DNA from: Escherichia phage Lw1
Length of the DNA stretch: 64,000 bases
Sequence record: KC801932
Strand: one strand, 5' to 3'
The translations under genes were made by a program, and so were the position numbers. Below the pieces are notes generated by a model. The model saw nothing but the letters and a program-made list of their open reading frames with translations, was not told the DNA's origin and searched no databases. The number at the start of each line of letters is the position of its first letter. Within the stretch, counting starts at the first letter, position 1. Positions 4,003 through 56,529 of the stretch are shown one piece after another.

Positions 4003-5292
4003 CTATTTCAATTTCTTCGAAAGTTCTTTCAAGTCATTGAGATATTCAATTTTCGGGGTTGTTGTTTCCCAGTATTTCAGTTGCTTACGCAGTTCGTTCG
4101 CTTCGTCTTCCAGCTTTTGACGTTCGTCCGTGGTTAGATGATAGATGTTCATCGCAACCAGAATTTCGGCGTGGTTCTCACAACCAGTCCACGTAGAGAC
4201 AAGTTTAACCGCTTCGCTGCGACTAAGCCCCTTCAACGCGTCAGGCTGTGCGATCATCTGGTCGATGAAGTCAACCTTCGCTAATGCCTTAGCCAGCGCT
4301 TCTTTAGCTTCCTGAATACGTTTTTCAATGCGCTGCTGGTAAACCGTCATACGGATATCAACGAAGTCTTTCAGCAACGTTTCAGGACGTTCATACGAAT
4401 GCAGTTTTCCGTTGAAGATAACGTTGATGTTCGGGTTTGAGTTCTCAATCAATCCGAAATCTTTCAGGATCTTCTCATGGGTAAGCCCGTTGGCATATTC
4501 GCGTTTAAGGGTTATCTCATAGCGGAAATCTTCTTTCGATAGATCCTTGTAGCTTACGATATAACCTTTCTCTTCCAGTTTATCCAGAATGGAGATATAT
4601 TTCACGCGGTCATACTTGACCGGAATCTCAGTAATCACCAGTTTGGTTTTGCCCTGGAGTTCGAATTTACCGTACATCGTACCGTCTTTAATATCGCCTT
4701 TAAAGTGCGGATATTTCAGATCTAACGCGAAATCTTTCCCATTCAGGTAACTAATACACCCATTCAGAACCGATACCGGATCATGTGGTGGAATGTTGGT
4801 AGCGTATGCTTTCGCGATCCCGCTGAACCCGTTAACCAATACCATCGGAATGATAGGCAGATAATAGGCAGGCGGTACGTGTTCAGGGTCTTCATGCGGA
4901 AGAGTTAAATCTTCGTCCATGTAGATAGCCTTGAACAGCGGAGACAGCTTACATTTGATGTAACGCGGTGCGCCTGGCTTCTTAACCAGACGGGAACCAA
5001 AGAACCCATCACGTTCGAAAAGCGGGATGTTGTTGCACCAGTGCGCCGCCATGAGAGACAACGCTTCTTCAACGGATGTTTCCCCGTGGTGATAACCATA
5101 CATAGCAACACCGCCAGCGATAGAGGCTACTTTCTGGAAGCCTGTACCGCCTTTTGCAGCGGAATGTATGAAGAAACGGTGAACGGGTTTGAACCCGTCT
5201 ACCAGGTGCGGGATCGCACGAGAATAAATTGTGTAAAGGGCAAACGTAAGCCCTTCAACCTGCACAACGTCTTTAATACTTCGTTCCATCAA
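4003..5292 (-). CDS. 52: DNA topoisomerase II medium subunit (GyrA-like)
   Basis: 429 aa; FKPVHRF, SIAGG, GYHHGE, FGSR, HVPPAYYLPIIP motifs as in T4 gp52. Confidence 0.9.
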   Translation of the reverse strand: MMERSIKDVVQVEGLTFALYTIYSRAIPHLVDGFKPVHRFFIHSAAKGGTGFQKVASIAGGVAMYGYHHGETSVEEALSLMAAHWCNNIPLFERDGFFGSRLVKKPGAPRYIKCKLSPLFKAIYMDEDLTLPHEDPEHVPPAYYLPIIPMVLVNGFSGIAKAYATNIPPHDPVSVLNGCISYLNGKDFALDLKYPHFKGDIKDGTMYGKFELQGKTKLVITEIPVKYDRVKYISILDKLEEKGYIVSYKDLSKEDFRYEITLKREYANGLTHEKILKDFGLIENSNPNINVIFNGKLHSYERPETLLKDFVDIRMTVYQQRIEKRIQEAKEALAKALAKVDFIDQMIAQPDALKGLSRSEAVKLVSTWTGCENHAEILVAMNIYHLTTDERQKLEDEANELRKQLKYWETTTPKIEYLNDLKELSKKLK

Positions 5293-7190
5293 TCAACCCT
5301 TGAAAATTTATGTTTTCCGTTTACCCAGTCTTTACGCGGATCGGAATCATCACCGAAACACAGTTCCAGAACGTCTTTGTATTCGTCGCCCAGTACGATT
5401 GTATCGTATTTCAACTGGTCGCCCAACACCCGATCGTAATCTTCTTTACGCAAAGAACCCAGCCCTTTGATGTATCGTACCTCTTTCGCTTTATCACGGA
5501 AAGGCGTGAAATCGTCCAGAGAGTAGAACCATTTTTCTTCACGTCCGACTTTCGCAATGATAATCGGTGTGCGAATATACCGGATCTTTTTCTTCGCGAA
5601 CAACTCAGGCCAACGGCTAAAGAATGCAATTAACAGGGTGAGAATATCGCCCCCGTCAACGTCAGCATCCACCATGATCCCGATGTTGTCGTAAGTCATT
5701 TCGGACGAGTCGCCTGGATGGAGATTCAGGATCGCCATTAACTCGAATAATTCTTTGTTTTTGAGAATGTCGGAAATGCTCATTCCCCAGGTGTTCAACG
5801 GTTTGCCACGTAGCGGAAACGCGCCTTGTGTCTCTTCGTTTCTGCACTCGATAAACTGCCCCACAGCGGAATCACCTTCCGTCAGAAACAAAGTGGTTTC
5901 GACTCCATCGGTATCAATTCCTGATGCTGGAACATGTTTTGCAACCTTCGCCTTTTTCGCTTTCTTTTTCGCTTTCGTAATGGCTGCTGCTTCTGCTGCC
6001 TGTTTGCGAATCAAAGCGGACTCGATGATCGGAGTGATTATTTCAGAAGTATCCATAATCTGTTTCGCGATCTTCTTGTAGTTCAGTCCGGCGTGGTTGT
6101 TGAACTCCCCAGCAGTGTTTGTCAGTTTTTCTTTCGTCTGACTATCAAAAGCTGGTGCATTGAAGTTATGCAAAAACACGACCAAAGTCAAACATTCTTT
6201 TACACGGGCTTTCGGGATCTCGATAGCGTGTTTCTTCTTGATCATCGGTTCCAGTTCGGCATAGATACCATCGATCATGCAATCGACGTGTACACCACCG
6301 TTTTTTGTGTCAAGACCGTTGACAAATGATTTCTGTTTGAACCCGTCTTCTGTGCTTGCCAGGATGAAACTGATTTTGTTGTTTGTCTGAACAATCGTTT
6401 TCTCTCCGTACATCGCACCATACATCGCGAATTTATTCGGGAGAACTTCATTGTTGTACGTAAATTTAACCGAAGGGAATGCCACTGCAAGCGCCATAAG
6501 GCGATCTTTGATGACTTCCTTTGTTTCTTCATCGATACCATCCACACCGAAGATAGAGAAATCAGGGGTAAACTTAACAGTGGTTCCCTGTTCTTTCGTC
6601 GGGCTGGTTCGGTAATCCATGTTCTGTGCGCCGTCAGTACAGTTGATAGTTACTTTGCGCTTACCGTTGGATGTCTCACCGATAAAGATTGAACTGTAAC
6701 AGTTCGTCAGGAAAGAACCTACACCGTTCATCCCCATTGTTACGCGGTTTTCATCATCGAAGTTCGAACCTGATTTTGCCATAGTCCATGCTGCAACAGG
6801 TTTAGGGACGATTTTACCTTCCGGCGTTCTTACGTCATCTTGGGGGATGCCTCGCCCGTTGTCGGAGATTGTCACCAAATTATGATCAATCTTCACTTCG
6901 ATTTTGTTCGCGAATTTAAAATCTGTGCGGATCGCTTCGTCAATAGAGTTATCGAGGATTTCGTTGATGATTTTCACCAGACCTTCGACATATTCCACTT
7001 TGCGGAACTTACCCTGAATGAAGCGTTCGTGTGCTTCTCGGTTCACTGAACCCACATACATGTTAGGACGTTTGCGAATGTGATCGCGATCACTTAGGCA
7101 GAATGATTCATCGACTTCCACGCCTTTTGGCGTTTCCGGTACTTTCTGCGGTTCTTCTTCGTCCATTAAGAAATCTAAACTCATATTCAC
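5289..7190 (-). CDS. 39: DNA topoisomerase II large subunit (GyrB-like, gene 39 fused with gene-60 portion)
   Basis: 633 aa; N-terminus parallels T4 gp39 (MY.GS, HERF, NS.DE.IRT.FKFANKI, DNGRGIPQ); longer than T4 gp39 alone, so uninterrupted 39/60. Confidence 0.9.
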   Translation of the reverse strand: MNMSLDFLMDEEEPQKVPETPKGVEVDESFCLSDRDHIRKRPNMYVGSVNREAHERFIQGKFRKVEYVEGLVKIINEILDNSIDEAIRTDFKFANKIEVKIDHNLVTISDNGRGIPQDDVRTPEGKIVPKPVAAWTMAKSGSNFDDENRVTMGMNGVGSFLTNCYSSIFIGETSNGKRKVTINCTDGAQNMDYRTSPTKEQGTTVKFTPDFSIFGVDGIDEETKEVIKDRLMALAVAFPSVKFTYNNEVLPNKFAMYGAMYGEKTIVQTNNKISFILASTEDGFKQKSFVNGLDTKNGGVHVDCMIDGIYAELEPMIKKKHAIEIPKARVKECLTLVVFLHNFNAPAFDSQTKEKLTNTAGEFNNHAGLNYKKIAKQIMDTSEIITPIIESALIRKQAAEAAAITKAKKKAKKAKVAKHVPASGIDTDGVETTLFLTEGDSAVGQFIECRNEETQGAFPLRGKPLNTWGMSISDILKNKELFELMAILNLHPGDSSEMTYDNIGIMVDADVDGGDILTLLIAFFSRWPELFAKKKIRYIRTPIIIAKVGREEKWFYSLDDFTPFRDKAKEVRYIKGLGSLRKEDYDRVLGDQLKYDTIVLGDEYKDVLELCFGDDSDPRKDWVNGKHKFSRVD

Positions 7191-7249
7191 CTCTTTGTTA
7201 GTTCAGTCATTATATAGGGTTCTATGAAAAAGAAAACCCCTTTCGGGGT

Positions 7250-7459
7250 TTAAGCATCTTTGATTTTTTGAAGAATGGGTATCAGTTCTTCAACTTGCAT
7301 TCGTGTTAACGCGATCTCAAAACCGTATTGGTTAATTCGCGTGATTTGCGACACCGATTCTGAATCAAATTCAACAATCAGTTTGTCGCAATATTCTTGC
7401 GGTTGAAACCCATCAGCATACCCGTAATCGTCGGGTATGGTTTCGTTTATTTTAGACAT
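7250..7459 (-). CDS. hypothetical protein
   Basis: ATG start 4 codons inside the track ORF (MSKINETIP...); intercistronic hairpin at its 3' end. Confidence 0.5.
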   Translation of the reverse strand: MSKINETIPDDYGYADGFQPQEYCDKLIVEFDSESVSQITRINQYGFEIALTRMQVEELIPILQKIKDA

Positions 7460-7613
7460 AGGGAAAGCCACCTTTTACCATTTGGGGCTTATCAACTGTT
7501 CGATGTGCTTCGCCCCCGCATTCACAGTCCTTTGGTGCATCGCGGGTCGCAATGCTGGACATTTTCGGGAACTCTTTTTCACACTTTTTGCATTTATAGG
7601 TATAAGTCGGCAT
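7452..7613 (-). CDS. small zinc-ribbon protein (FmdB-like)
   Basis: 53-aa ORF absent from track: MPTYTYKCKKCEKEF...CECGG; TAATG overlap with upstream gene. Confidence 0.45.
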   Translation of the reverse strand: MPTYTYKCKKCEKEFPKMSSIATRDAPKDCECGGEAHRTVDKPQMVKGGFPYV

Positions 7614-8050
7614 TAATAGATCTCTTTTAAACTCAACATATCAATAAGATTAGCTCTACGCATATCAAACACACATTGTGATTTACCTGCATACAACCGA
7701 TCAACTTCATATACCATACAAACGAAACCACAATTGTGTAAGCGTTCGCGTTCGTATTTGTTAAACCATTTTGACAGTTTAGGCAATGAAGCAAATCCGA
7801 AATGAAATCCATCGAAACCGTCACCATTAAGACTACGAGAAAGTCGCAGATCTTCCCAAGGGGCCGGATGTCGGTCGTCGTCAATGGATACACAAGGACG
7901 AGGATTAATATAAAATTGTTCTAACCATTTTAACGTTTTGTTGTTTATTACTTGCGTTACGTATGGCCCGATATTGCGAGTCCATTGCGTTTTTCCACAA
8001 TTCTGATCACGAATAACAGAAACGTTCAATTCAACACGGTAGACTAACAT
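7613..8050 (-). CDS. hypothetical protein
   Basis: 145 aa; ATG preceded by GAGGA. Confidence 0.55.
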   Translation of the reverse strand: MLVYRVELNVSVIRDQNCGKTQWTRNIGPYVTQVINNKTLKWLEQFYINPRPCVSIDDDRHPAPWEDLRLSRSLNGDGFDGFHFGFASLPKLSKWFNKYERERLHNCGFVCMVYEVDRLYAGKSQCVFDMRRANLIDMLSLKEIY

Positions 8051-8070
8051 TATATAATCCTCACAATTGA

Positions 8071-8718
8071 TTAACTACAGGTATCGTACCACTTCTGTAG
8101 TTTCTTCGCAACAAGTTTATTCACTACTTGCGCGATTTCGTGCGTTCCGTGGGTTGCGTTCAGTTCCAGGTAGATGACATCCAGAGCGCACAGGATCACA
8201 TCAACGCTTTCCTCTACGATGTTACCGCCTCGCTGGGGCTGAATGATACATTCAGACACTTCCCCAACTTCTGCCGCCATGTGATGCACTACGTCGCTTT
8301 TGTGGCGTTTCTTAACCCGGTGCGCAACCTTAAAGAAGTCATCCAGCACAACAGAAGTTGATTCACGCGGGGCGACCTCGCCTCCTGCTGTTGCTTCTTC
8401 CAGAATTTTTCTGAACAGTTCTGGAACAACAATATCGTTTCTTGGCGCTTCTGCTTCTTCTGCTTCTTCGCGTGTTGCGATGTATACCGGATTAAACAGG
8501 GTTTTCAGCGTGTCAAACGTAACCGGACAGGGGATGCCCTCAAGATAAACTGAGTTCAGCATTACAATGCTGATTTTACGCGGCGCGTTGAAGTCCATCG
8601 GATTCTTGCGCAATGCTTCATAGATACGACGAACCGGATCGGTCGGTTTGCACGTTTGCACAACCGCTAAGAAAATCGATTTCGGGGCGTACATGTCGCC
8701 TACTTTATACTTGCTCAT
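8071..8718 (-). CDS. hypothetical protein
   Basis: 215 aa from internal ATG (MSKYKVGD); TAATG junction with upstream gene; acidic-helical C-terminal half. Confidence 0.55.
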   Translation of the reverse strand: MSKYKVGDMYAPKSIFLAVVQTCKPTDPVRRIYEALRKNPMDFNAPRKISIVMLNSVYLEGIPCPVTFDTLKTLFNPVYIATREEAEEAEAPRNDIVVPELFRKILEEATAGGEVAPRESTSVVLDDFFKVAHRVKKRHKSDVVHHMAAEVGEVSECIIQPQRGGNIVEESVDVILCALDVIYLELNATHGTHEIAQVVNKLVAKKLQKWYDTCS

Positions 8719-8989
8719 TAACAATACCTTTATAGTAACCAAAAATAAAACAGTTCACGGTCGGACGTTCGCCAGGGAAATGAACACACTGCATGATGCG
8801 TTCAGCCATTAAAACATCGTCAAGATACACGCACGTTGTTTCTTCGTGATAATGGCTGTCATATGATGTACGCTTAACCATGCCAGGCAAACCAGCAATG
8901 TGCATGAATTTGGCGTTGCTGCACGGCTTTCCTGGCTTATCGTCGTAACATAACACTACATTCGTTTTGCTGTTCTTTGGTCTGCTCAT
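8705..8989 (-). CDS. hypothetical protein
   Basis: 94 aa; ATGA overlap with upstream gene. Confidence 0.5.
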   Translation of the reverse strand: MSRPKNSKTNVVLCYDDKPGKPCSNAKFMHIAGLPGMVKRTSYDSHYHEETTCVYLDDVLMAERIMQCVHFPGERPTVNCFIFGYYKGIVNEQV

Positions 8990-9576
8990 TTGTTCACAAC
9001 CTCATTATATGTTTTCAAATTCCATTCATGCACTTCCGGCACTTTGGAGTAATGATCCAGAAAAATTAACTGGACTTGCATAACACTAGCACGGCTCATA
9101 TTGAAAAGGAAGCGCTGAGGCGATGAAATACACAGATAATCTTCTGTGATCCCTCTGCTCGCGGTAAATTCCTTTGTTTCTCCACCGTCGAATTTTGCAT
9201 AAACGCTAGTGGAGAAGTACGGGGCGAAAAGATTACGCTTTTCGTCGTCAGTAATCGCGCTAAAACATGCGCTGACGAGTTTTCCAGTCCCTTCCCTTGT
9301 GACGGTGAAGGTTGTTCCCTTCGTGCGTCCTAAGACGTTCACAACGCGTTCTGTGACATCACCGAAAGCGTTCGTATAATTAACAGTTTCGACAAATCCG
9401 TGATCGCGCCTTTCCTGCAACATCTTTTCATGTTGGGCTATTGAATCTTGTTCAGCGGCTTGTTCTGCTGCTTGATAAACTGCTTTATTCGGATCTCTTG
9501 ATTGCCATGCGAAGAAAAACACTCCAGCGGCTATCAGTCCAAAAATTGCAAATCGTGCGGTTCCTGATAGTTTCAT
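8986..9576 (-). CDS. membrane-anchored or secreted protein
   Basis: 196 aa from internal ATG (MKLSGTARFAIFGLIAAGVFFFA = signal/anchor); track N-terminal extension overlaps the next gene in another frame. Confidence 0.5.
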   Translation of the reverse strand: MKLSGTARFAIFGLIAAGVFFFAWQSRDPNKAVYQAAEQAAEQDSIAQHEKMLQERRDHGFVETVNYTNAFGDVTERVVNVLGRTKGTTFTVTREGTGKLVSACFSAITDDEKRNLFAPYFSTSVYAKFDGGETKEFTASRGITEDYLCISSPQRFLFNMSRASVMQVQLIFLDHYSKVPEVHEWNLKTYNEVVNK

Positions 9577-9610
9577 TTTCTTTTCCAGAAAGGGGCCGAA
9601 GCCCCTTAGT

Positions 9611-9940
9611 TTAGCGTAAGTATTTGACATACCCAGATGAATCGATGCTGTTTTCTGGGTTGTTGAAGATGTTACCACGAATACCCTTAGCAGGTGCTTT
9701 CCAGCCAGCGGCTTTGTAGATATTCCCGTCATTATCCAGGAATCCGGCAACTGAACGCTGGTTGAACATTCCACCAGTTTCTTTGTTGCGAGTATCCTGC
9801 ACGATGCGATGATACTTACGACCTTTCTCCAGAGTAAAAACAGTTTCAAACGGAGAATCTTGGAAACGTGCGTTACGAGCAACGAACATCGCGTTCAGGT
9901 AAGGTGCTGCGGCGTTAGCGAGAGTTTCAAAAGTATTCAT
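9611..9940 (-). CDS. hypothetical protein
   Basis: 109 aa; AAGGAG before ATG; shares upstream element CTTTGATATAGTTACCCCATCGAAAC with the 10226 gene. Confidence 0.5.
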   Translation of the reverse strand: MNTFETLANAAAPYLNAMFVARNARFQDSPFETVFTLEKGRKYHRIVQDTRNKETGGMFNQRSVAGFLDNDGNIYKAAGWKAPAKGIRGNIFNNPENSIDSSGYVKYLR

Positions 9941-10007
9941 GGTAAATCTCCTTAGTTCGTTTCGATGGGGTAACTATATCAAAGTCGGTATTGCGATACA
10001 AGCAATT

Positions 10008-10226
10008 TTATTGATTTTCGAGCAAATAATTCAAATGGGCTTTCAGGGCCGGAAGTTCTGCAATGTGGTTTTTCTTAACTTTATCATACTCTTTGCGTTC
10101 CCACGGTTCCAGGTTACTCGCCAGCGCTTCATCACAATAAGCGATCCCGCGTTCTGCGTCCTGAACCATTTGAGTCCACTGTTTTACTGCTTGCTGATGA
10201 AGAGAACCGTTAACCATCATAATCAT
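10008..10226 (-). CDS. hypothetical protein
   Basis: 72 aa; GGGAGG before ATG. Confidence 0.45.
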   Translation of the reverse strand: MIMMVNGSLHQQAVKQWTQMVQDAERGIAYCDEALASNLEPWERKEYDKVKKNHIAELPALKAHLNYLLENQ

Positions 10227-10451
10227 TTCCTCCCTTGTTTCGATGGGGTAACTATATCAAAGCTACCCCGTGAAGTCTTTAGCAAAAAGTGCTATGAGTG
10301 AAGCCAATTACCGATCGCAACAATAAAACTAGTGATGAATGGGGCATTACAGAAAAACAGTACCCCGTAATCACATTCCTTTATCTTAAAGTTGTTGTAT
10401 ACAAGATAAAGAAAATTAGCAAAGGCCCATAGTGAGAACACAGCGAAAAAT

Positions 10452-10670
10452 TCAACCATGATTCTCTACCAGTTTTCCCTGATACCACTTAGGAAACGTA
10501 ACGCGTTCAATCAGGGTTCTTGCCAGGTTATGACTATCACCGAAAAGGAGAACACCAAACAAAGGATCTCTCTTGATGTCGTTTTTCCCTACGGTTCTCA
10601 TATTGCCTTGATAAATCACGGTGTCGCCCACCGTGATATCTTTGATACTGACTTTTGTTACATTATACAT
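10452..10670 (-). CDS. hypothetical protein
   Basis: 72 aa. Confidence 0.45.
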   Translation of the reverse strand: MYNVTKVSIKDITVGDTVIYQGNMRTVGKNDIKRDPLFGVLLFGDSHNLARTLIERVTFPKWYQGKLVENHG

Positions 10671-10819
10671 ACAATCACCTCAGCAAGTTTCGCGGGTTTC
10701 GCTTCCGGTCTGATTTTGAGCGCATCATCTAAATTCTTTTCAACCATAACAACTGCGTTTTCTTCGTTGAACCCGTTCTTAACCAGGGCTTTAACTACTT
10801 TGGCTTTTAAGTTTTCCAT
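10658..10819 (-). CDS. hypothetical small protein
   Basis: 53 aa from ATG (MENLKAKVVK); track N-terminus is translated leader sequence. Confidence 0.4.
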   Translation of the reverse strand: MENLKAKVVKALVKNGFNEENAVVMVEKNLDDALKIRPEAKPAKLAEVIVCIM

Positions 10820-10856
10820 GATGCGTTCCTTTTGTCTGTTTCGTTTCGATGTGTGT

Positions 10857-10900
10857 AATATACAAAAAAGCCCCCTGCATTGCAAGAGGCTTCTTTAGCA
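10857..10900 (-). promoter_or_regulatory. terminator hairpin with embedded promoter (-35 TTGCAA, 17 bp, -10 TATATT) plus conserved leader
   Basis: minus-sense hairpin followed by T-run after the 10911..11207 gene; leader 10825..10862 identical to 56214..56251. Confidence 0.5.
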
Positions 10901-10910
10901 AAAAGTGCTA

Positions 10911-11207
10911 TTATCTCAATAGTCGTTTACGAATGCCGCCATCACGGGTTTGGTCGTAAATCGCTTTGGCTTCTACTATTGTCTTTTTCAGTGTATGGCT
11001 TTCCCCGTATCCGGTAAAATAGAACTCAACGAACCCTTCGTAAAGGTTTACATGGGTCGTCACACCTTCACCACGGAAGTGTTTCACAAACTGGCGCGTA
11101 TTATACTTAAACCAATCATGGGCTTCCCCGTGTCTGTATAAGGAGTGGATCACAAATGCACCACCAACACTAATCAGAATAAGGCCAATTAATATAATAG
11201 TATTCAT
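10911..11207 (-). CDS. membrane protein
   Basis: 98 aa with N-terminal TM helix (MNTIILIGLILISVGGAFVI). Confidence 0.5.
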   Translation of the reverse strand: MNTIILIGLILISVGGAFVIHSLYRHGEAHDWFKYNTRQFVKHFRGEGVTTHVNLYEGFVEFYFTGYGESHTLKKTIVEAKAIYDQTRDGGIRKRLLR

Positions 11208-11413
11208 TATTTTCCCCTGTTTACAGACTGACGATGCAGCGCACGGTTGATGCGCGGTGCTTTATACGGTTTTACTTTGTATGGAGTCGGTTCATCGTAT
11301 GGAATTCGACTACACAGATCAACACAAGGTGTACGAACCCAACGAATAGAATCAATCAAGCAACTTACCAGAGTGCGGCTAATCATAGTACCGCCTAATA
11401 CCGCTATACGCAT
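11207..11413 (-). CDS. hypothetical protein
   Basis: 68 aa from internal ATG (MRIAVLGG). Confidence 0.4.
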   Translation of the reverse strand: MRIAVLGGTMISRTLVSCLIDSIRWVRTPCVDLCSRIPYDEPTPYKVKPYKAPRINRALHRQSVNRGK

Positions 11414-11421
11414 AAAACCCC

Positions 11422-11565
11422 CTATCGAGTAGCAAGAATGCGAAGCCATTCGCCCAACCAAACGATCGCCTCGTAGGACAACCATAATCCGATCGATACA
11501 ACTGAAATCATACCAATAATCGCAAATGCGAATACAACCTTAAATCCTTCTTTCAAATCAAACAT
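11422..11565 (-). CDS. small membrane protein
   Basis: 47-aa ORF absent from track (MFDLKEGFKVVFAFAIIGMISVVSIGLWL...); AAGAGGA before ATG. Confidence 0.4.
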   Translation of the reverse strand: MFDLKEGFKVVFAFAIIGMISVVSIGLWLSYEAIVWLGEWLRILATR

Positions 11566-11592
11566 AAATTGTCCTCTTTTGTGTCAGTCCCT

Positions 11593-11626
11593 AAAATAAC
11601 AAAACCCTTGCACGAATGCAAGGGTT
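11593..11626 (-). promoter_or_regulatory. terminator hairpin with embedded promoter (-35 TTGCAT, 17 bp, -10 TATTTT)
   Basis: minus-sense AACCCTTGCA-TTCG-TGCAAGGGTT after dexA, upstream of the 47-aa membrane ORF. Confidence 0.45.
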
Positions 11627-11630
11627 TTTA

Positions 11631-12302
11631 TTATCTTTTTCTCGGTAAACTCAGTTCGTCGGTTTCTTCTTCGGTCGGCGGTTCTTCCAACCCCATTGCA
11701 TAACGCATGGCATAGATCAGCATCAGCGCATCTTTTGCACAATCGTGAATTGAGTTGTGCATCACAAAACCATTTAGAATGCCTTTACGCAGAGGACAGG
11801 TTGAAGCCCCACGGGTCAACAGTCGGTTTTCAATGGCTGTACGCACATCACGACTATTCCAGAACACGGTCGGCATGTCGTCAAAGATGTCAATCTTTCC
11901 TATCATCTTACGTACCACATCAACCAGGATACCTCGATCGAATTCAGGGCCACGAACATAATCGAGGGATTGCCAACGGCTTACACCGTCTGCTTTCAAG
12001 TCCTCGAAAAACTGTTTATGTCCTTCGTACAGGTCGATATCATCAGGCGAAGGTTTCAGAATAGCACGGGCTTCTTCGCTTTGCTGTTTCCACCAATCAA
12101 TCGTTGATTTGTCAGCAATGCGATCCGGTTGCTTTTTCAAATCGAACTTATATTTTCTCCCCCGCGAAACCAGTTCCGCGAATGTTGGCGGGTTGTGGGG
12201 GTCGTCGATAAACGGAACGTAAGACAGTTCAACGAGTTTACCGTTTGGTGACGGGCCTACAGTTTCATAGTCCCATACGTAATCAACTGGAAGATGTGAC
12301 AT
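11631..12302 (-). CDS. dexA: exonuclease A (DEDDh 3'-5' exonuclease)
   Basis: 223 aa from ATG (MSHLPVDY); DYETVG and H-x4-D (HNSIHDCAKDA) motifs; near dda as in T4. Confidence 0.7.
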   Translation of the reverse strand: MSHLPVDYVWDYETVGPSPNGKLVELSYVPFIDDPHNPPTFAELVSRGRKYKFDLKKQPDRIADKSTIDWWKQQSEEARAILKPSPDDIDLYEGHKQFFEDLKADGVSRWQSLDYVRGPEFDRGILVDVVRKMIGKIDIFDDMPTVFWNSRDVRTAIENRLLTRGASTCPLRKGILNGFVMHNSIHDCAKDALMLIYAMRYAMGLEEPPTEEETDELSLPRKR

Positions 12303-30658: not shown

Positions 30659-31594
30659 TCAAAAGTCACTTAATTTTTCAAACATACGGACAAGTTTGTT
30701 TTCCATGAAGTATTTCTCCATTTTAGCCTTGTTGCCCGATTTCGGATTATTGTACGCCTTTTCGATTTCATCTGCAACATCTTTTGGAATAAAATCGAAA
30801 TCACGTAGTTCTTCGTTTTCCCTGTACCTTGCGGCCCACTCAGGGGTCATATGGACAGTAGGGTCGTCCGCATCCAGCCACAATTCCAGTTCATTAGCGC
30901 GGATTTGCGGGGCGCGTTCACCTTCAACTTTCGTAACAATATAGTCGTTTCTCATTTTAATACAAGCGATACTATCTTTTTTATCGCCCTTAATGATCTT
31001 CATACGTAAATCATTACGAGGTGTACCGTATTTCGGCGTAACCCATTTCTTTTGGGTAGGCGACCATTGTCGAACACCCTGATATTTTTGCAGCGCGGTA
31101 AAGTCACTATCCGCTGATACAATCAGGACTCGCTTACCTTGCGCTACTGCGTTTTTCGTAACGACACCGATAATATCATCGGCTTCTGCGAAGTCAACCC
31201 TCAAACCTTTGTACGGAAGATTCTCGCGGATCTCGTCGTAGGTCGGATGAAGGAAACCGTTCAGAAAATCCCAGTCCCATTCGGATTCCGCGTGTTCCAT
31301 TTGTCGTTTCTTTTTGTAGTACCAGGCTTTACTTCTTCGCCAATACTTGTTATCATCAAAGGCTAAGACAATTTCTGGGTACTCACCTTTGAATTTAACC
31401 ACGTTGTACCGGATTGTGTCAAGAACAATGTGACGAATAATTTGTTGATTGATGTCTTTCTGGTCTTTCGGCTTGAAGTTGTTCATCAACGTTGCTACCG
31501 AAAGGTTTGAAATATCTATACACATCACATCAACAGGATCATCTTCATTGCTCATTAAACTGTTCAGATTGAACATTGAAGCAAATGAACTCAT
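30659..31594 (-). CDS. rnh: RNase H (5'-3' flap endonuclease)
   Basis: 311 aa from ATG (MSSFASMF) with GAGGT SD; CIDISN, YWRR, WDWDF, SADSDFTALQKY, VRQWSP, KGDKKDSIA, TKVEGERAP parallel T4 RNase H. Confidence 0.85.
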   Translation of the reverse strand: MSSFASMFNLNSLMSNEDDPVDVMCIDISNLSVATLMNNFKPKDQKDINQQIIRHIVLDTIRYNVVKFKGEYPEIVLAFDDNKYWRRSKAWYYKKKRQMEHAESEWDWDFLNGFLHPTYDEIRENLPYKGLRVDFAEADDIIGVVTKNAVAQGKRVLIVSADSDFTALQKYQGVRQWSPTQKKWVTPKYGTPRNDLRMKIIKGDKKDSIACIKMRNDYIVTKVEGERAPQIRANELELWLDADDPTVHMTPEWAARYRENEELRDFDFIPKDVADEIEKAYNNPKSGNKAKMEKYFMENKLVRMFEKLSDF

Positions 31595-31671
31595 TTCAAT
31601 ACCTCGTTGTTGTTGAATGAAGCTGATTATAGTGATCACTTTTTCAAAGTCAATAGATCATTTCAAGATTC

Positions 31672-31812
31672 TGAGCGAAGCGAAGGACACGAACGAAGTG
31701 AGTGTCTAACTACATAACTACACTTTTAAATTTTTATATTTTATATATAGAGAAAAATGTAGTTTTTGGTATGTTTTTTAACCAATCTTACCTATCCGTT
31801 TCGCTTCGCTCA
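31672..31812. repeat. 13-bp perfect inverted repeat (TGAGCGAAGCGAA / TTCGCTTCGCTCA) flanking an AT-rich 115-bp core
   Basis: read directly in the rnh/55 divergent intergenic region; GCGAAG-type sub-repeats on both arms. Confidence 0.7.
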
Positions 31813-31916
31813 CGGAAACGCTTCGCGTTGATTTTATTAAATAATATAGATTGGAAGTAGGTTTGAAACCTGTAATTCCATCAGCTATAATGAATGTATT
31901 CAATTTGGAGAATATA

Positions 31917-54050: not shown

Positions 54051-54664
54051 AACCAGTTATTCTTACCGATATTGACGGGATCGCCGTAAAATGGCAAAGC
54101 GGCCTCCCGTTCTTTTTGTCTAAACACAATATGCCTACTGATATTGCTCTGGACATGGTCACCGATGAAAGATTTCGTGATATGACCGAAATATTCGGGT
54201 GTGATCACCAACTGGCTAAAATCCTGATGGAAGAATATAACAACAGTTCGTTTATTCGCTATCTAAGCGCGTATGACGATGCGTTAGTTGTGATCAACCG
54301 TCTGAAAGCCAAATATGATTTCGTCGCTGTCACGGCGCTGGGAACCACTCCTACGGCAAGTCTGAACCGTATTGCAAACCTGAACACATTGTTCCCGTCT
54401 GCATTCAAAGAAGTGATGGTCGTCGGACATGGTGAAACAAAAACACATCGTTACCTGGAAGCAAAAGCCAAATACGGATCGCGGTTGGTTTGCTTTGTTG
54501 ATGACCTTGCGGTAAACTTAAACGAGTGTCATAACGTCATCAGTCAGTTGCCGTTATTTCACATGTTGCGTGGTGAACGTGAACAACCAAATGTTCCGCA
54601 CAGTATCGTAAAATCATGGTTTGAAATTGAAGAGAAATTAGATGATCTTATCAATATTGAATGA
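54047..54664 (+). CDS. HAD-superfamily hydrolase-like protein (possible 5'(3')-deoxyribonucleotidase)
   Basis: 205 aa; N-terminal ILTDIDGI resembles HAD motif I; C-terminal VDD. Confidence 0.5.
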   Translation: MKPVILTDIDGIAVKWQSGLPFFLSKHNMPTDIALDMVTDERFRDMTEIFGCDHQLAKILMEEYNNSSFIRYLSAYDDALVVINRLKAKYDFVAVTALGTTPTASLNRIANLNTLFPSAFKEVMVVGHGETKTHRYLEAKAKYGSRLVCFVDDLAVNLNECHNVISQLPLFHMLRGEREQPNVPHSIVKSWFEIEEKLDDLINIE

Positions 54665-56165
54665 ACTTGCATCGACTCTGAAAACCTCAGAGAAGGAAGC
54701 AATTTTAAAACGTAATGCAAACAACCTATTGTTGAAAGAGATTTTCCGAATTACGTACACAAAACAGATTATGTTCTATGTGCGTAAGTTTCCCCAGGTG
54801 GACGGCAAACCAGGAACAACCCCGCTATCAAATGCAATCGCGGACCTGATGTCCGATTTAGCATCGCGGAAGTATACAGGTAATGCAGCCCGCGATCGCC
54901 TGATGGATATTGTGTCATCAGTAAACGAGAACGATCGCGAAGTGTTGCGCCGTATCATTAACCGCGATCTTGAATGTGGTGCGGGTACAACTCTGCCAAA
55001 CCGCGTATGGAAGAAACTTATTCCAGAACAGCCTCAATGCCTCGCTACGCCGTTTAGTGAAAAAGCCTTAAAACGTATTCGCTTCCCTGCTTACTCTCAG
55101 CTTAAAGCCGATGGTGCGCGTTGTATGTCGGATCTGTTAGAAGACCAGATTCGCAAAGCAACCCGCGCGGGAAATGAGTATACAGGTTTGGTTGATCTGG
55201 ATAAGGATTTGAAAAAGATCCGCGAATATCTGGGTTATGATGTTGTGCTGGATGGAGAATTGATTTATGTCCCTGGTGGAAAATCCGTTGAAGTTCCTGT
55301 GTCTCCTGTTACGTTTAGCCTTGCTGGGTTTATGGGCGATGACGATGATTCTGTTACTGACTTTGTGGCTGATGTTAGGCGGGAAGCCACCGAGGGAGAA
55401 AAACAGGAAGAGGCGAAACGCGAAGAAGGAAACGGAATCGTAAACAAATCCCTGAAAGGCACTATCAGCGACGAAGAACAACAGAACATCGTTTATGTTG
55501 TCTGGGACATCATACCGTATGAAGTTTATTATGGTGATGCTCCGAGTGTTCAGCCTTACAAAGATCGCTTGTCTATCCTTGATGGTGTTATCGCTGGCAC
55601 TGGTGTAACATCGGTTCAGTTGATTCCTTCTATCCTGGTGCAAACCATCGCGGAAGCAAAACAGGATTACAACAATTACCGCAATGACGGTAAAGAGGGT
55701 TCAATCCTGAAAAACGTTGATTTCGTCTGGAAGGATTCACGCGTTGCGGATCAGGTTAAGTTGAAGAACAAAACCCCGATCGAACTACGAATCATCGACG
55801 TATACGCGCACACCAAAGAACCTCATAAGGTCGGCGGGTTTGTTGTTGAGGACTTATCAGGAGAAGCCAGGACGAACACAGGTTCCGGTTTAACTGATAC
55901 AGACTACCGTTACGATGAAGACGGTGTTACCCGCGTGTATATCCCGTTAGACGAACGTGGAGAACTGGATCGCGAGTATATCATGACGAACAAAGATGAC
56001 TATATTGGCGCTATCGTCGAAATGGAAGTTGACGGACTCCAGAAGTCTAAAACGCGTAAGAAGGGCGAACCTGAATACAGTTTCTTCTTGCCAATCATCA
56101 AGAAGATTCGACGCGATAAGACGGAACCTGATGATATTCATGTGGTTTTTGCCGATCTGTTTTAA
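54642..56165 (+). CDS. 30: ATP-dependent DNA ligase
   Basis: 507 aa; N-terminus MILSILNELAS parallels T4 gp30; adenylation motif LKADGARC. Confidence 0.9.
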   Translation: MILSILNELASTLKTSEKEAILKRNANNLLLKEIFRITYTKQIMFYVRKFPQVDGKPGTTPLSNAIADLMSDLASRKYTGNAARDRLMDIVSSVNENDREVLRRIINRDLECGAGTTLPNRVWKKLIPEQPQCLATPFSEKALKRIRFPAYSQLKADGARCMSDLLEDQIRKATRAGNEYTGLVDLDKDLKKIREYLGYDVVLDGELIYVPGGKSVEVPVSPVTFSLAGFMGDDDDSVTDFVADVRREATEGEKQEEAKREEGNGIVNKSLKGTISDEEQQNIVYVVWDIIPYEVYYGDAPSVQPYKDRLSILDGVIAGTGVTSVQLIPSILVQTIAEAKQDYNNYRNDGKEGSILKNVDFVWKDSRVADQVKLKNKTPIELRIIDVYAHTKEPHKVGGFVVEDLSGEARTNTGSGLTDTDYRYDEDGVTRVYIPLDERGELDREYIMTNKDDYIGAIVEMEVDGLQKSKTRKKGEPEYSFFLPIIKKIRRDKTEPDDIHVVFADLF

Positions 56166-56184
56166 ATAGCACTTTTTGTTTAAA

Positions 56185-56219
56185 AAGCCCTTGCATACGT
56201 GCGAGGGCTTTGTTATATT
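56185..56219 (+). promoter_or_regulatory. terminator hairpin with embedded promoter (-35 TTGCAT in stem, 17-bp spacer, -10 TATATT)
   Basis: AAAGCCCTTGCA-TACG-TGCGAGGGCTTT hairpin after ligase; -10 begins the 38-nt leader that recurs identically at 10825..10862. Confidence 0.5.
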
Positions 56220-56256
56220 ACACACATCGAAACGAAACAGACAAAAGGAACATCCC

Positions 56257-56529
56257 ATGCAAATCACTAAAGAACTCGAAGGCAAAGTAATCAACCTGAC
56301 ATACCGTGCGCGTTTTGAAAAACTGGCTAATGGTGGCGAATCTTTGGGTGAAGCGGTAGCGTTATTCGAAAGACTTCGGGTTAAACGTGTTGTTGATGGT
56401 TGGGTTATTGCTCTCCCTGTTGCAGATGAAGATAAAGCAGTATATGACCCAGTTGCCGATTCATGGGATATTGAAATCTGTTTAGTTAACGTTGAAGTAG
56501 AACTTTGCTTCGAAGAAGAAAATAATTGA
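56257..56529 (+). CDS. hypothetical protein
   Basis: 90 aa from ATG (MQITKELEG) after AAGGAA; track N-terminus is translated leader. Confidence 0.5.
   Translation: MQITKELEGKVINLTYRARFEKLANGGESLGEAVALFERLRVKRVVDGWVIALPVADEDKAVYDPVADSWDIEICLVNVEVELCFEEENN

Follow-up and report, generated by a model that had tools for sequence, protein, structure and literature searches.

A probable early accessory region of small genes with repeated putative promoter-terminator modules between the topoisomerase gene and dexA of Escherichia phage Lw1

We analysed 64,000 nucleotides of the genome of Escherichia phage Lw1 (sequence record KC801932), which we call the window, and asked what is encoded in a block of small genes at positions 7,250 to 11,630, between the topoisomerase gene and dexA (Table 1). 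The listing of open reading frames (ORFs), combined with an inspection of start codons and ribosome-binding sites, gives 14 co-directional genes on the minus strand, P1 to P14, which fill the interval. The coding share is 4022 of 4381 nucleotides (92%). Neighbouring genes are often joined: there is an ATGA junction at P6/P5, a TAATG junction at P3/P2 and at P13/P12, and overlaps of 8 to 14 nucleotides are found for P2/P1, P5/P4, P10/P9 and P11/P10. An earlier reading made from the letters alone (the sequence-only reading) had described about 13 densely packed small ORFs of 47 to 215 amino acids with ATGA and TAATG overlaps; the dense packing, the overlaps and the exact size range are as described, and the number of genes has to be corrected to 14. 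The three ORFs that it had listed as membrane or secreted (8986..9576, 10911..11207 and 11422..11565, our P6, P12 and P14) have one transmembrane (TM) segment each according to hydropathy, and P9 has two.

Table 1. Features of the block and its borders, in window coordinates (promoter and terminator assignments are putative; aa, amino acids; TM, transmembrane segment)
Feature	Position	Strand	Description
Fused topoisomerase gene 39+60	5289-7190		flanking gene
Element upstream of gene 39+60	7195-7251	-	terminator hairpin (AAACCCCGAAAGGGGTTT) and -10 TATAAT; edge of P1 presence/absence
P1	7250-7459	-	69 aa, acidic (pI 4.2); sporadic accessory gene; phrog_26912, E 1e-51; dN/dS 0.11-0.13
P2	7452-7613	-	53 aa; zinc ribbon CxxC...CxC; Pfam PF09723 (Zn_ribbon_8), 40.2 bits (cut-off 34.4)
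P3	7613-8050	-	145 aa; motB.2 / Phage_T4_Y00F family; candidate ADP-ribosyltransferase-like fold
P4	8071-8718	-	215 aa; N-terminal domain 1-85, variable acidic linker, predicted C-terminal MazG-like domain ~116-215
P5	8705-8989	-	94 aa, Cys/His-rich; phrog_7820, E 8e-60; dN/dS 0.017-0.13
P6	8986-9576	-	196 aa; N-terminal membrane anchor 5-23, periplasm-type domain; candidate superinfection-exclusion protein
Hairpin after P7	9592-9605	-	GGGGC-UUCG-GCCCC; terminator or attenuator; T-run too short for the terminator scan
P7	9611-9940	-	109 aa; DUF7717; basic (pI 9.7), alpha+beta; own promoter module and hairpin
M3	9959-10010	-	upstream of P7; extended -10 TGATATAGT, weak -35 TTGTAT
P8	10008-10217	-	69 aa; phrog_7866, E 7e-43; dN/dS 0.05-0.28; lone gene between M2 and M3
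Exchanged cassette	10204-10853	-	M1 leader, P11, P10, P9 and M2 (650 bp); 98-100% identical to Slopekvirus KP27
M2	10237-10296	-	TAGCACTTTTTGCTAAAGA box, then stem-loop GGGGTA...TACCCC around -10 TATAGT; upstream of P8
P9	10292-10459	-	55 aa; two TM; phrog_23355, E 2e-38
P10	10452-10670	-	72 aa, basic; phrog_3623, E 5e-32; dN/dS 0.07-0.11; in 8/8 relatives
P11	10658-10819	-	53 aa; phrog_9411, E 5e-36, and C-terminal part of phrog_7322; in 8/8 relatives
M1	10843-10910	-	TAGCACTTTTTGCTAAAGA box, then hairpin (10889-10872) with -35 TTGCAA in the loop, T-run, -10 TATATT
P12	10911-11207	-	98 aa; N-terminal TM 3-21; phrog_6661, E 7.5e-44
P13	11207-11413	-	68 aa, very basic (pI 10.4); phrog_7179, E 7e-40
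P14	11422-11565	-	47 aa; single TM 10-28; phrog_7343, E 5e-28
M0	11566-11630	-	dexA terminator hairpin (12-bp stem, 11628-11601) with -35 TTGCAT inside; -10 TATTTT 17 nucleotides on
dexA	11631-12302		flanking gene

All 14 genes match a PHROG family, with E values between 5e-28 and 4e-112. Furthermore, we calculated the ratio of nonsynonymous to synonymous substitutions (dN/dS) against RB43, Buttiauxella phage GuL6 or a Klebsiella phage, counting only comparisons in which dS was not saturated (synonymous divergence ranged from 0.05 to >1), and obtained 0.02 to 0.38 for every gene. Because of the family matches and of these ratios, we consider P1 to P14 to be real genes and not chance ORFs. At the DNA level, 96% of the interval aligns with RB16 at 97% identity; with RB43, the identity is 90%.

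Apart from the PHROG families, the searches were sparing with functional hints. Nine of the 14 ORFs have no Pfam match beyond weak, sub-threshold ones, scans of ten ORFs with PADLOC and NCBIfam gave no credible match, and nothing significant was found when the sequences of the PDB were searched with the single proteins P3, P4 and P7 or with family profiles of P3, P4, P5, P6 and P7. We were not able to find any paralogues among the 14 proteins within the window. Rfam, run over positions 7000-12000, returned sub-threshold matches only, all of them on the dexA terminator hairpin, and in the literature we found no functional study on motB.2, DUF7717, PF26820 or the genes tagged RB43ORF or RB16p. 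While the sequence-only reading could assign none of the ORFs, four of them can be placed in families: P2 (gp39.2), which is also the one zinc-ribbon protein of that reading, P3 (motB.2/Y00F), P4 (a MazG-like domain) and P7 (DUF7717). The other ten genes, most of the block, have only PHROG families of unknown function.

The non-coding parts of the block are repetitive. A 22-mer and a 19-mer each occur twice as exact repeats inside the block, for which the chance expectation is 0.00, and the intergenic modules M1, M2 and M3 share exact repeats of 19 to 26 nucleotides. These are the repeated promoter modules that the sequence-only reading had pointed out, and they look like sigma-70-type promoters. 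For example, the M1 promoter TTGCAA-17-TATATT scores 9 of 12 matches in the promoter scan. M3 and M2 have a core of 26 nucleotides in common (identical 22-26-mers at 9959-9984 and 10237-10262); M3 lacks the upstream arm of the M2 stem, though the core with the -10 and the leader is common to both. The annotators of phage KP27 put promoters and terminators at the same sites, and the KP27 equivalent of the hairpin after P7 is annotated as a terminator. We read no promoter in the sequence between this hairpin and P6, and for this reason the genes P6 to P1 are probably read from promoters further upstream. From the sequence features and from the parallels in other phages, we infer that the modules act as promoters and terminators.

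Composite promoter-terminator cassettes with a stem-loop that sits between -35 and -10, or over the -10, have been described under the name of PeSLs, and in RB49/phi1 it has been shown experimentally that they act as promoters and terminators and take part in modular shuffling (PMC2839356; PMC4122927). Of the properties by which PeSLs are recognised, sigma-70-like hexamers about 17 nucleotides apart are present in M1 and M0 and partly in M2 and M3, which have the extended -10 only. A stem-loop within the cassette is found in M0, M1 and M2, and both repeated copies and a coincidence with indels are seen as well. We also considered whether the TTGCT motif of the modules is a MotA box, that is, part of a middle promoter, and rejected this candidate: the motif lies 21-23 nucleotides from the -10, while the T4 consensus has N11-13 after the 9-nucleotide MotA box.

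A fourth, near-identical copy of M1 lies at 56150-56260 on the plus strand (TAGCACTTTTTG..., a hairpin and the TATATTACACACATCGAAACGAAACAGACAAAAGGAAC leader), that is, 45 kb away and on the opposite strand. It is located directly 3' of the DNA ligase gene (54642-56165) and is followed by a small ORF starting with MQITKELEG. Given this copy, the M1-type cassette is dispersed over the genome, on both strands.

Next, we compared the gene content of the block between relatives. The sequence-only reading had called the block hyperplastic, which turned out to be too strong a word: all eight relatives compared share 11 of the 14 genes with this phage, and the plasticity is moderate. The sporadic genes are P1, found in only 9 phage records and missing from Miller, IME-CF2, GAP161 and phi1_146010, and P9, found in 22 records, among which Klebsiella phages give the best match (96.4%). 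P8 has been lost in one of the eight relatives (GAP161) and is just 47% identical in Klebsiella and Cronobacter phages. P3, P12 and P13 occur in sharply divergent allele classes (for P12 there are two, with identities of 96-99% and 39-49%), and in some relatives denV and a gene for a LysM protein are inserted in the block.

Every one of the indels has one edge at a module. The deletion of P9 in RB16 is clean, with one edge at the first base of M2. In RB43 and Miller, denV lies between two promoters that share GTATATTACRCACAT; this phage, like RB16 and IME-CF2, has only one M1 there. RB43, Miller and KP27 carry the LysM gene just upstream of M0, and the presence or absence of P1 is decided just upstream of the terminator hairpin of gene 39. 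The same is seen in the comparison with the Klebsiella phage KP27. The background identity to KP27 is 70-80% (topoisomerase, dexA, dda) and 50-nucleotide windows flanking positions 10204-10853 are 52-84% identical, as opposed to the nearly identical cassette between them (Table 1); the identity drops sharply inside the modules, with the left breakpoint in M2 and the right one in M1. Since the edges of the indels and the KP27 breakpoints fall there, we regard the modules as recombination junctions, and they have mediated a recent exchange between two genera. The KP27 cassette is an unusually clean natural case of a module-bounded exchange of this kind, and it extends the PeSL shuffling model past pairs of nearly identical phages.

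Among the genes with a family assignment, P2 has its cysteines at positions 8, 11, 30 and 32 and is 43% identical to T4 gp39.2 over 42 residues (BLASTP, E 9e-8). The place beside gene 39 is kept as well, by P2 here and by 39.2 in T4. To judge from its sequence, P2 is the orthologue of gp39.2. According to the passage of PMC4396842 that cites Ang & Georgopoulos 2012, T4 gp39.2 is NwgI, which shifts the open/closed equilibrium of the host GroEL. In RefSeq, homologues of gp39.2 including that of T4 itself (L009 3703-3840; here and below, L numbers are our handles for the sequences compared) are labelled "FmdB-like transcriptional regulator". This label is misleading, since it has been taken from the name of the zinc-ribbon family while the T4 protein, in the same passage of PMC4396842, is a modulator of GroEL.

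P7 passes the DUF7717 model of Pfam with 53.8 bits (gathering score 27), and PF24835 is found on all 49 of its 49 homologues. It has an invariant basic motif, GNIYKAAGWKAPAKGIRGN. In the predicted model (pLDDT 93.9), a long helix is packed against a five-stranded sheet; we were not able to find a convincing neighbour of this model among the PDB structures. From the charge of P7 one might guess that it binds nucleic acids.

P3 matches T4 motB.2 with E 4e-14, and all ten of its close homologues carry a precomputed PF26820, that is, Phage_T4_Y00F. Two divergent allele classes exist among the relatives. A search with a profile of P3 homologues finds 1340 cluster representatives, mostly proteins of 117-130 amino acids; the 51 distant Y00F members that we sampled all belong to phrog_1106, and Pfam and PHROG scans of these 51 gave no other annotated domain and no Pfam family of ADP-ribosyltransferases (ARTs). 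As we read the list, ART-fold proteins make up about two thirds of the best 32 matches of P3, namely RES toxins, pertussis/LT-type toxins, DarT, Tpt1, PARP domains, Arr and TreTu; these ART-fold matches are weak. Three residues, R5 (in VYR), S88 (in GFxSL) and E115 (in YExD), do not vary in the alignment and lie on predicted strands, and R5 and S88 are nearly invariant across the wider Y00F family. The three residues could correspond, in this order, to the R-S-E signature of ARTs. Counting against an ART are a Foldseek search of P3 against the PDB, which found nothing, a comparison of the Y00F family with T4 ModA and ModB by hhalign (probability below 1%), and a search of PDB sequences with the P3 family profile, which found no relative. 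On balance, an ART fold of P3 is possible and somewhat improbable.

The gene next to it encodes P4, which matches phrog_7315 with E 1.5e-108 and, with residues 124-212, phrog_1247 (MazG-like pyrophosphatase, E 2.3e-15). Its acidic residues E150, E153, E156, E169, E170 and D173 (ExxE...EExxD) are invariant in seven phages. P4 stays below the threshold of the Pfam MazG model, and the PDB match of its profile, to iMazG (2q73, E 0.6), is weak. Judging from the PHROG match and the acidic motif, the C-terminus of P4 is a predicted MazG-like NTP pyrophosphohydrolase domain. One related metagenomic phage contig encodes a P4-like MazG domain that continues in frame into a Y00F domain, and a second Y00F gene comes after it. 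This apparent fusion, seen in a single assembly, hints that the adjacent P4 and P3 may act together. We observed also that P4 of GAP161 is annotated as two ORFs, one with the N-terminal domain and one with the MazG domain (L006 5533-6131), which may be a frameshift or a difference in annotation.

P6, whose cysteines C104 and C149 are conserved, was found by tblastn in 176 of 50,697 phage records, exclusively of the Pseudotevenvirus and Slopekvirus type. No Tequatrovirus record is among the matches in this collection, and hence P6 has no sequence homology to the Sp or Imm proteins of T4. P6 has homologues with an identity of 75-79% in bacteria, namely in genomes of the Enterobacter cloacae complex, complete chromosomes among them; hundreds of assembly blocks of this complex list a copy. 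The copies, such as the gene at L017 10001-10591, are found at one chromosomal locus, between fruBKA/MFS and an efp-like gene, in an island with a low GC content that begins with a large serine recombinase. One variant of the island adds an EcoRII-type restriction-modification system, Gabija (GajA E 7.5e-218, GajB E 5e-170) and the candidate system PDC-S11. Phage and island resemble each other in DNA only over the P6 gene, together with the final codons of P7 on its upstream side and a decayed start of P5 on its downstream side, from which we conclude that the island gene came from a Pseudotevenvirus. The island copy is of full length, 78-79% identical, and has kept the anchor and both cysteines. 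Compared with the phage gene, it has a dN/dS of 0.13, and for a pair of island variants with 87% identity the value is 0.23. In the GTDB species-representative genomes, the sole match to P6 is a 178-kb phage contig in a Flagellimonas assembly; the island copy, absent from these representatives, therefore varies between strains.

Since Enterobacter defence islands have captured P6 and kept the copy intact, our best guess is that P6 is a superinfection-exclusion protein. Most probably P6, with its predicted inner-membrane anchor and a periplasmic domain of the disulphide type, acts at the envelope and in doing so benefits cells that meet these phages; exclusion would be the simplest role of this sort. 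The sequence-only reading had seen in the block a typical location for genes of host takeover, superinfection exclusion or anti-defence. We would follow it as a suggestion about the region, and P6 alone has circumstantial support for exclusion.

The contig just mentioned (NZ_JBHSCL010000010.1, 178,077 bp, from a Flagellimonas marina assembly) carries a P6 that is 81% identical, and it is almost certainly a contaminating Pseudotevenvirus and not part of a marine member of the Bacteroidota. In the islands, the P6 copy always stands beside other small exported proteins of 76 and 124 amino acids with signal-peptide-like N-termini (L014 9717-9947 and 11291-11665), and one variant has an LprI-like protein too (L017 8964-9725). 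We found no phage or PADLOC match for any of these neighbours, and the 124-amino-acid protein has no phage homologue. In one island variant, a second short stretch (L010 11926-12101) is 81% identical to the intergenic positions 31653-31826 of the phage, which lie between an rnh-like ORF (30659-31639) and the next gene; this could be one more piece of captured phage DNA, or a regulatory element that both have in common.

Two wider proposals can be made from these genes. One is that the Y00F/motB.2 family is an unrecognised clade of ART-fold enzymes working with the adjacent MazG-like enzyme. The other, independent of the first, is that P6 defines a family of phage-encoded exclusion proteins facing the periplasm, which the Enterobacter cloacae complex has domesticated as a stand-alone anti-phage gene in the island with the serine recombinase, beside Gabija, EcoRII-type restriction-modification and PDC-S11. 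We consider these proposals speculative and rather doubtful. An ART-like fold with a link to MazG would be the first structural hypothesis for T4 motB.2, a member of a family that is widespread in phages. If the second proposal is true, P6 would be a defence gene that came directly from a lytic phage and is aimed at the phage lineage of its donor. P6 is a testable lead on how bacteria acquire defence genes: in the defence island, one early gene from a lytic phage has stayed intact while its neighbours decayed.

Two of the remaining genes deserve a comment. No gene of the block is conserved more strongly than P5, which has 99% amino-acid identity to RB43, Miller and IME-CF2; a search of its family profile against the PDB found no relative. 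In IME-CF2 it is annotated as truncated (L005 4193-4393), which may again be a frameshift or a difference in annotation. For P9, we noted an intact homologue (55 amino acids, 73-75% identical) that is not annotated in RB43 (L002 6563-6727) and in Miller (L003 5814-5978). The annotations leave about 225 bp free between ORF013c and ORF014c, where it sits as a missed gene for a small membrane protein. Outside the block, the large subunit of the topoisomerase (633 amino acids; Table 1) is encoded in one piece by the fused gene 39+60, as in RB16 and RB43, without the gene split, the mobA insertion and the translational bypass of gene 60 that are features of T4.

Taking the observations together, we think that the block is very probably the early accessory region of an RB16-like Pseudotevenvirus, a counterpart of the hyperplastic 39-dexA region of T4, equipped with cassettes of the PeSL type. 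As such, it is a feature of an already described kind: it is annotated in RB16 and RB43 and fits the published model of hyperplastic regions and PeSLs. The genes would form about five transcription units, [P14-P13-P12], [P11-P10-P9], [P8], [P7] and [P6-P5-P4-P3-P2-P1], and in each module the hairpin would end the upstream unit while a promoter of the sigma-70 type, recognised by the host RNA polymerase, would start the next. Being repeated, the modules double as recombination junctions, as the comparison of the relatives shows: cassettes enter or are lost there and pass from one phage to another, even across genera. The cargo would be a mixture of non-structural, host-directed proteins: the zinc ribbon of the gp39.2/NwgI type, the Y00F/motB.2 protein, the MazG-like enzyme, the DUF7717 protein, and, as the remainder, four small membrane proteins and six small soluble ones.

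Several points weigh against this explanation. The promoters, the terminators and the "early" status are deduced from the sequence and from what is known of other phages. The -35 hexamers of M2 and M3 are poor, and these promoters would depend on the extended -10. Upstream of P6 no promoter is visible, and the expression of P6 to P1 may need read-through of the hairpin after P7. The distribution of the genes among the relatives is more even than the word "hyperplastic" implies, there is no functional clue for nine of the 14 products, and the exclusion role of P6 is circumstantial, with PADLOC recognising neither P6 nor the island copy.

Potentially, the small ORFs could be chance frames or decaying remnants in a non-coding spacer, as several of them are very short (47-55 amino acids) and without a domain match. 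This we find hardly credible, given that nearly all of the region is coding on a single strand, that RBS-like sequences are present and starts are coupled, and that every ORF has a PHROG family; dN/dS values well below 1 refute it. It is also very unlikely that all genes are ordinary housekeeping genes of replication and nucleotide metabolism like their neighbours topoisomerase, dexA and dda. The MazG-like domain of P4 and the presence of denV in the same region of relatives would fit such a role, whereas four of the products are membrane proteins, none except P4 resembles a nucleic-acid enzyme, P1 and P9 are naturally dispensable, and the ORFs as a whole are not a set of characterised housekeeping orthologues. 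More weight has to be given to the idea that the block is chiefly an anti-defence island and that most of the small proteins are dedicated inhibitors of bacterial immunity. Small ORFs with their own promoters in an early region are in line with it, the two or three divergent allele classes of P3, P12 and P13 suggest a diversifying replacement, and a MazG-like enzyme and a possible NAD-utilising fold, the two being fused in one relative, could degrade or modify nucleotide signals. However, there is no match to further characterised families, and the PADLOC and NCBIfam scans were negative; the latter is weak evidence, because these libraries hold defence and not anti-defence proteins. Moreover, most genes are kept across two genera under strong purifying selection, which is more typical of a general host takeover than of counter-defence genes with a fast turnover, and the sole characterised orthologue, 39.2/NwgI, acts on a chaperone and not on immunity as far as the passage of PMC4396842 goes. 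We therefore consider a block made up chiefly of anti-defence genes unlikely and prefer the mixed accessory region.

For P6 alone, there is a further explanation: it could be an envelope protein of the phage's own cycle (lysis timing, an antiholin- or spanin-like function, or a helper of DNA entry), with the bacterial copy as a neutral relic of abortive recombination. Like a core function, P6 is conserved throughout the 176 records of Pseudotevenvirus and Slopekvirus phages; its translation is coupled with that of P5 and P4, and it has no homology to T4 Imm or Sp. A neutral relic, on the other hand, would not be expected to stay full length with its anchor and its cysteines while the adjoining fragments of P5 and P7 decay, nor to show such low dN/dS, both against the phage and between the island variants; and the copy is found in hundreds of assembly blocks at one locus, next to Gabija, restriction-modification and PDC-S11. 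An own-cycle protein with a neutral bacterial relic thus seems to us possible but rather unlikely, and exclusion remains our best guess for P6.

The closest counterpart of the block is the same interval of RB16, annotated as RB16p007-RB16p019 between 39+60 and dexA with the same gene order; RB43ORF006c-019c of RB43 correspond likewise. The shared genes are 93-100% identical to those of RB16 in amino acids, with the difference that P9 is present here and gone from RB16. RB43 differs by its denV and LysM genes, which are not in the block of this phage, and by its P3 allele, which is only 43% identical. In T4, the variable 39-dexA region (39.1, 39.2, goF, cef, motB, motB.1, motB.2) is found at the same place between the large subunit of the topoisomerase and dexA, as the sequence-only reading had located the block; it is on the same strand, has the character of an early region and shares homologues of 39.2 and motB.2. 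On the other hand, the 12 other genes of the block have no T4 counterpart in the interval, and goF, cef, motB and motB.1 are not in the block: a tblastn search with the 14 proteins against the T4 39-dexA interval matched 39.2, motB.2 and dexA only.

Similar comparisons can be made for single proteins. P2 is, like T4 gp39.2, a small zinc-ribbon protein coded next to gene 39; its second cysteine pair is CxC and not CxxC. With the all-alpha NTP pyrophosphohydrolases of the MazG type, such as the integron iMazG (2q73), P4 has the acidic ExxE...EExxD motif in common, whereas the extra N-terminal domain and the acidic linker are its own. Sp and Imm of T4 are proteins of the early region that are anchored in the inner membrane and act at the envelope. 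P6 has the same general topology according to hydropathy, but no sequence similarity to either, and it is twice as long.

Finally, the modules can be compared with the PeSLs of RB49/phi1, PST/T4 and nt-1/KVP40 (Arbiol et al. 2010; Comeau et al. 2014). Here, too, a sigma-70-like promoter is combined with a stem-loop, copies are repeated in the genome, and they lie upstream of ORFans with a Shine-Dalgarno sequence and at indels between close relatives. The sequences are different, with a TAGCACTTTTTGCTAAAGA box, a -10 of TATAGT or TATATT and a CATCGAAAC leader, and the -35 hexamers of M2 and M3 are weak. A further difference is that the exchange seen here took place between genera, Pseudotevenvirus and Slopekvirus.

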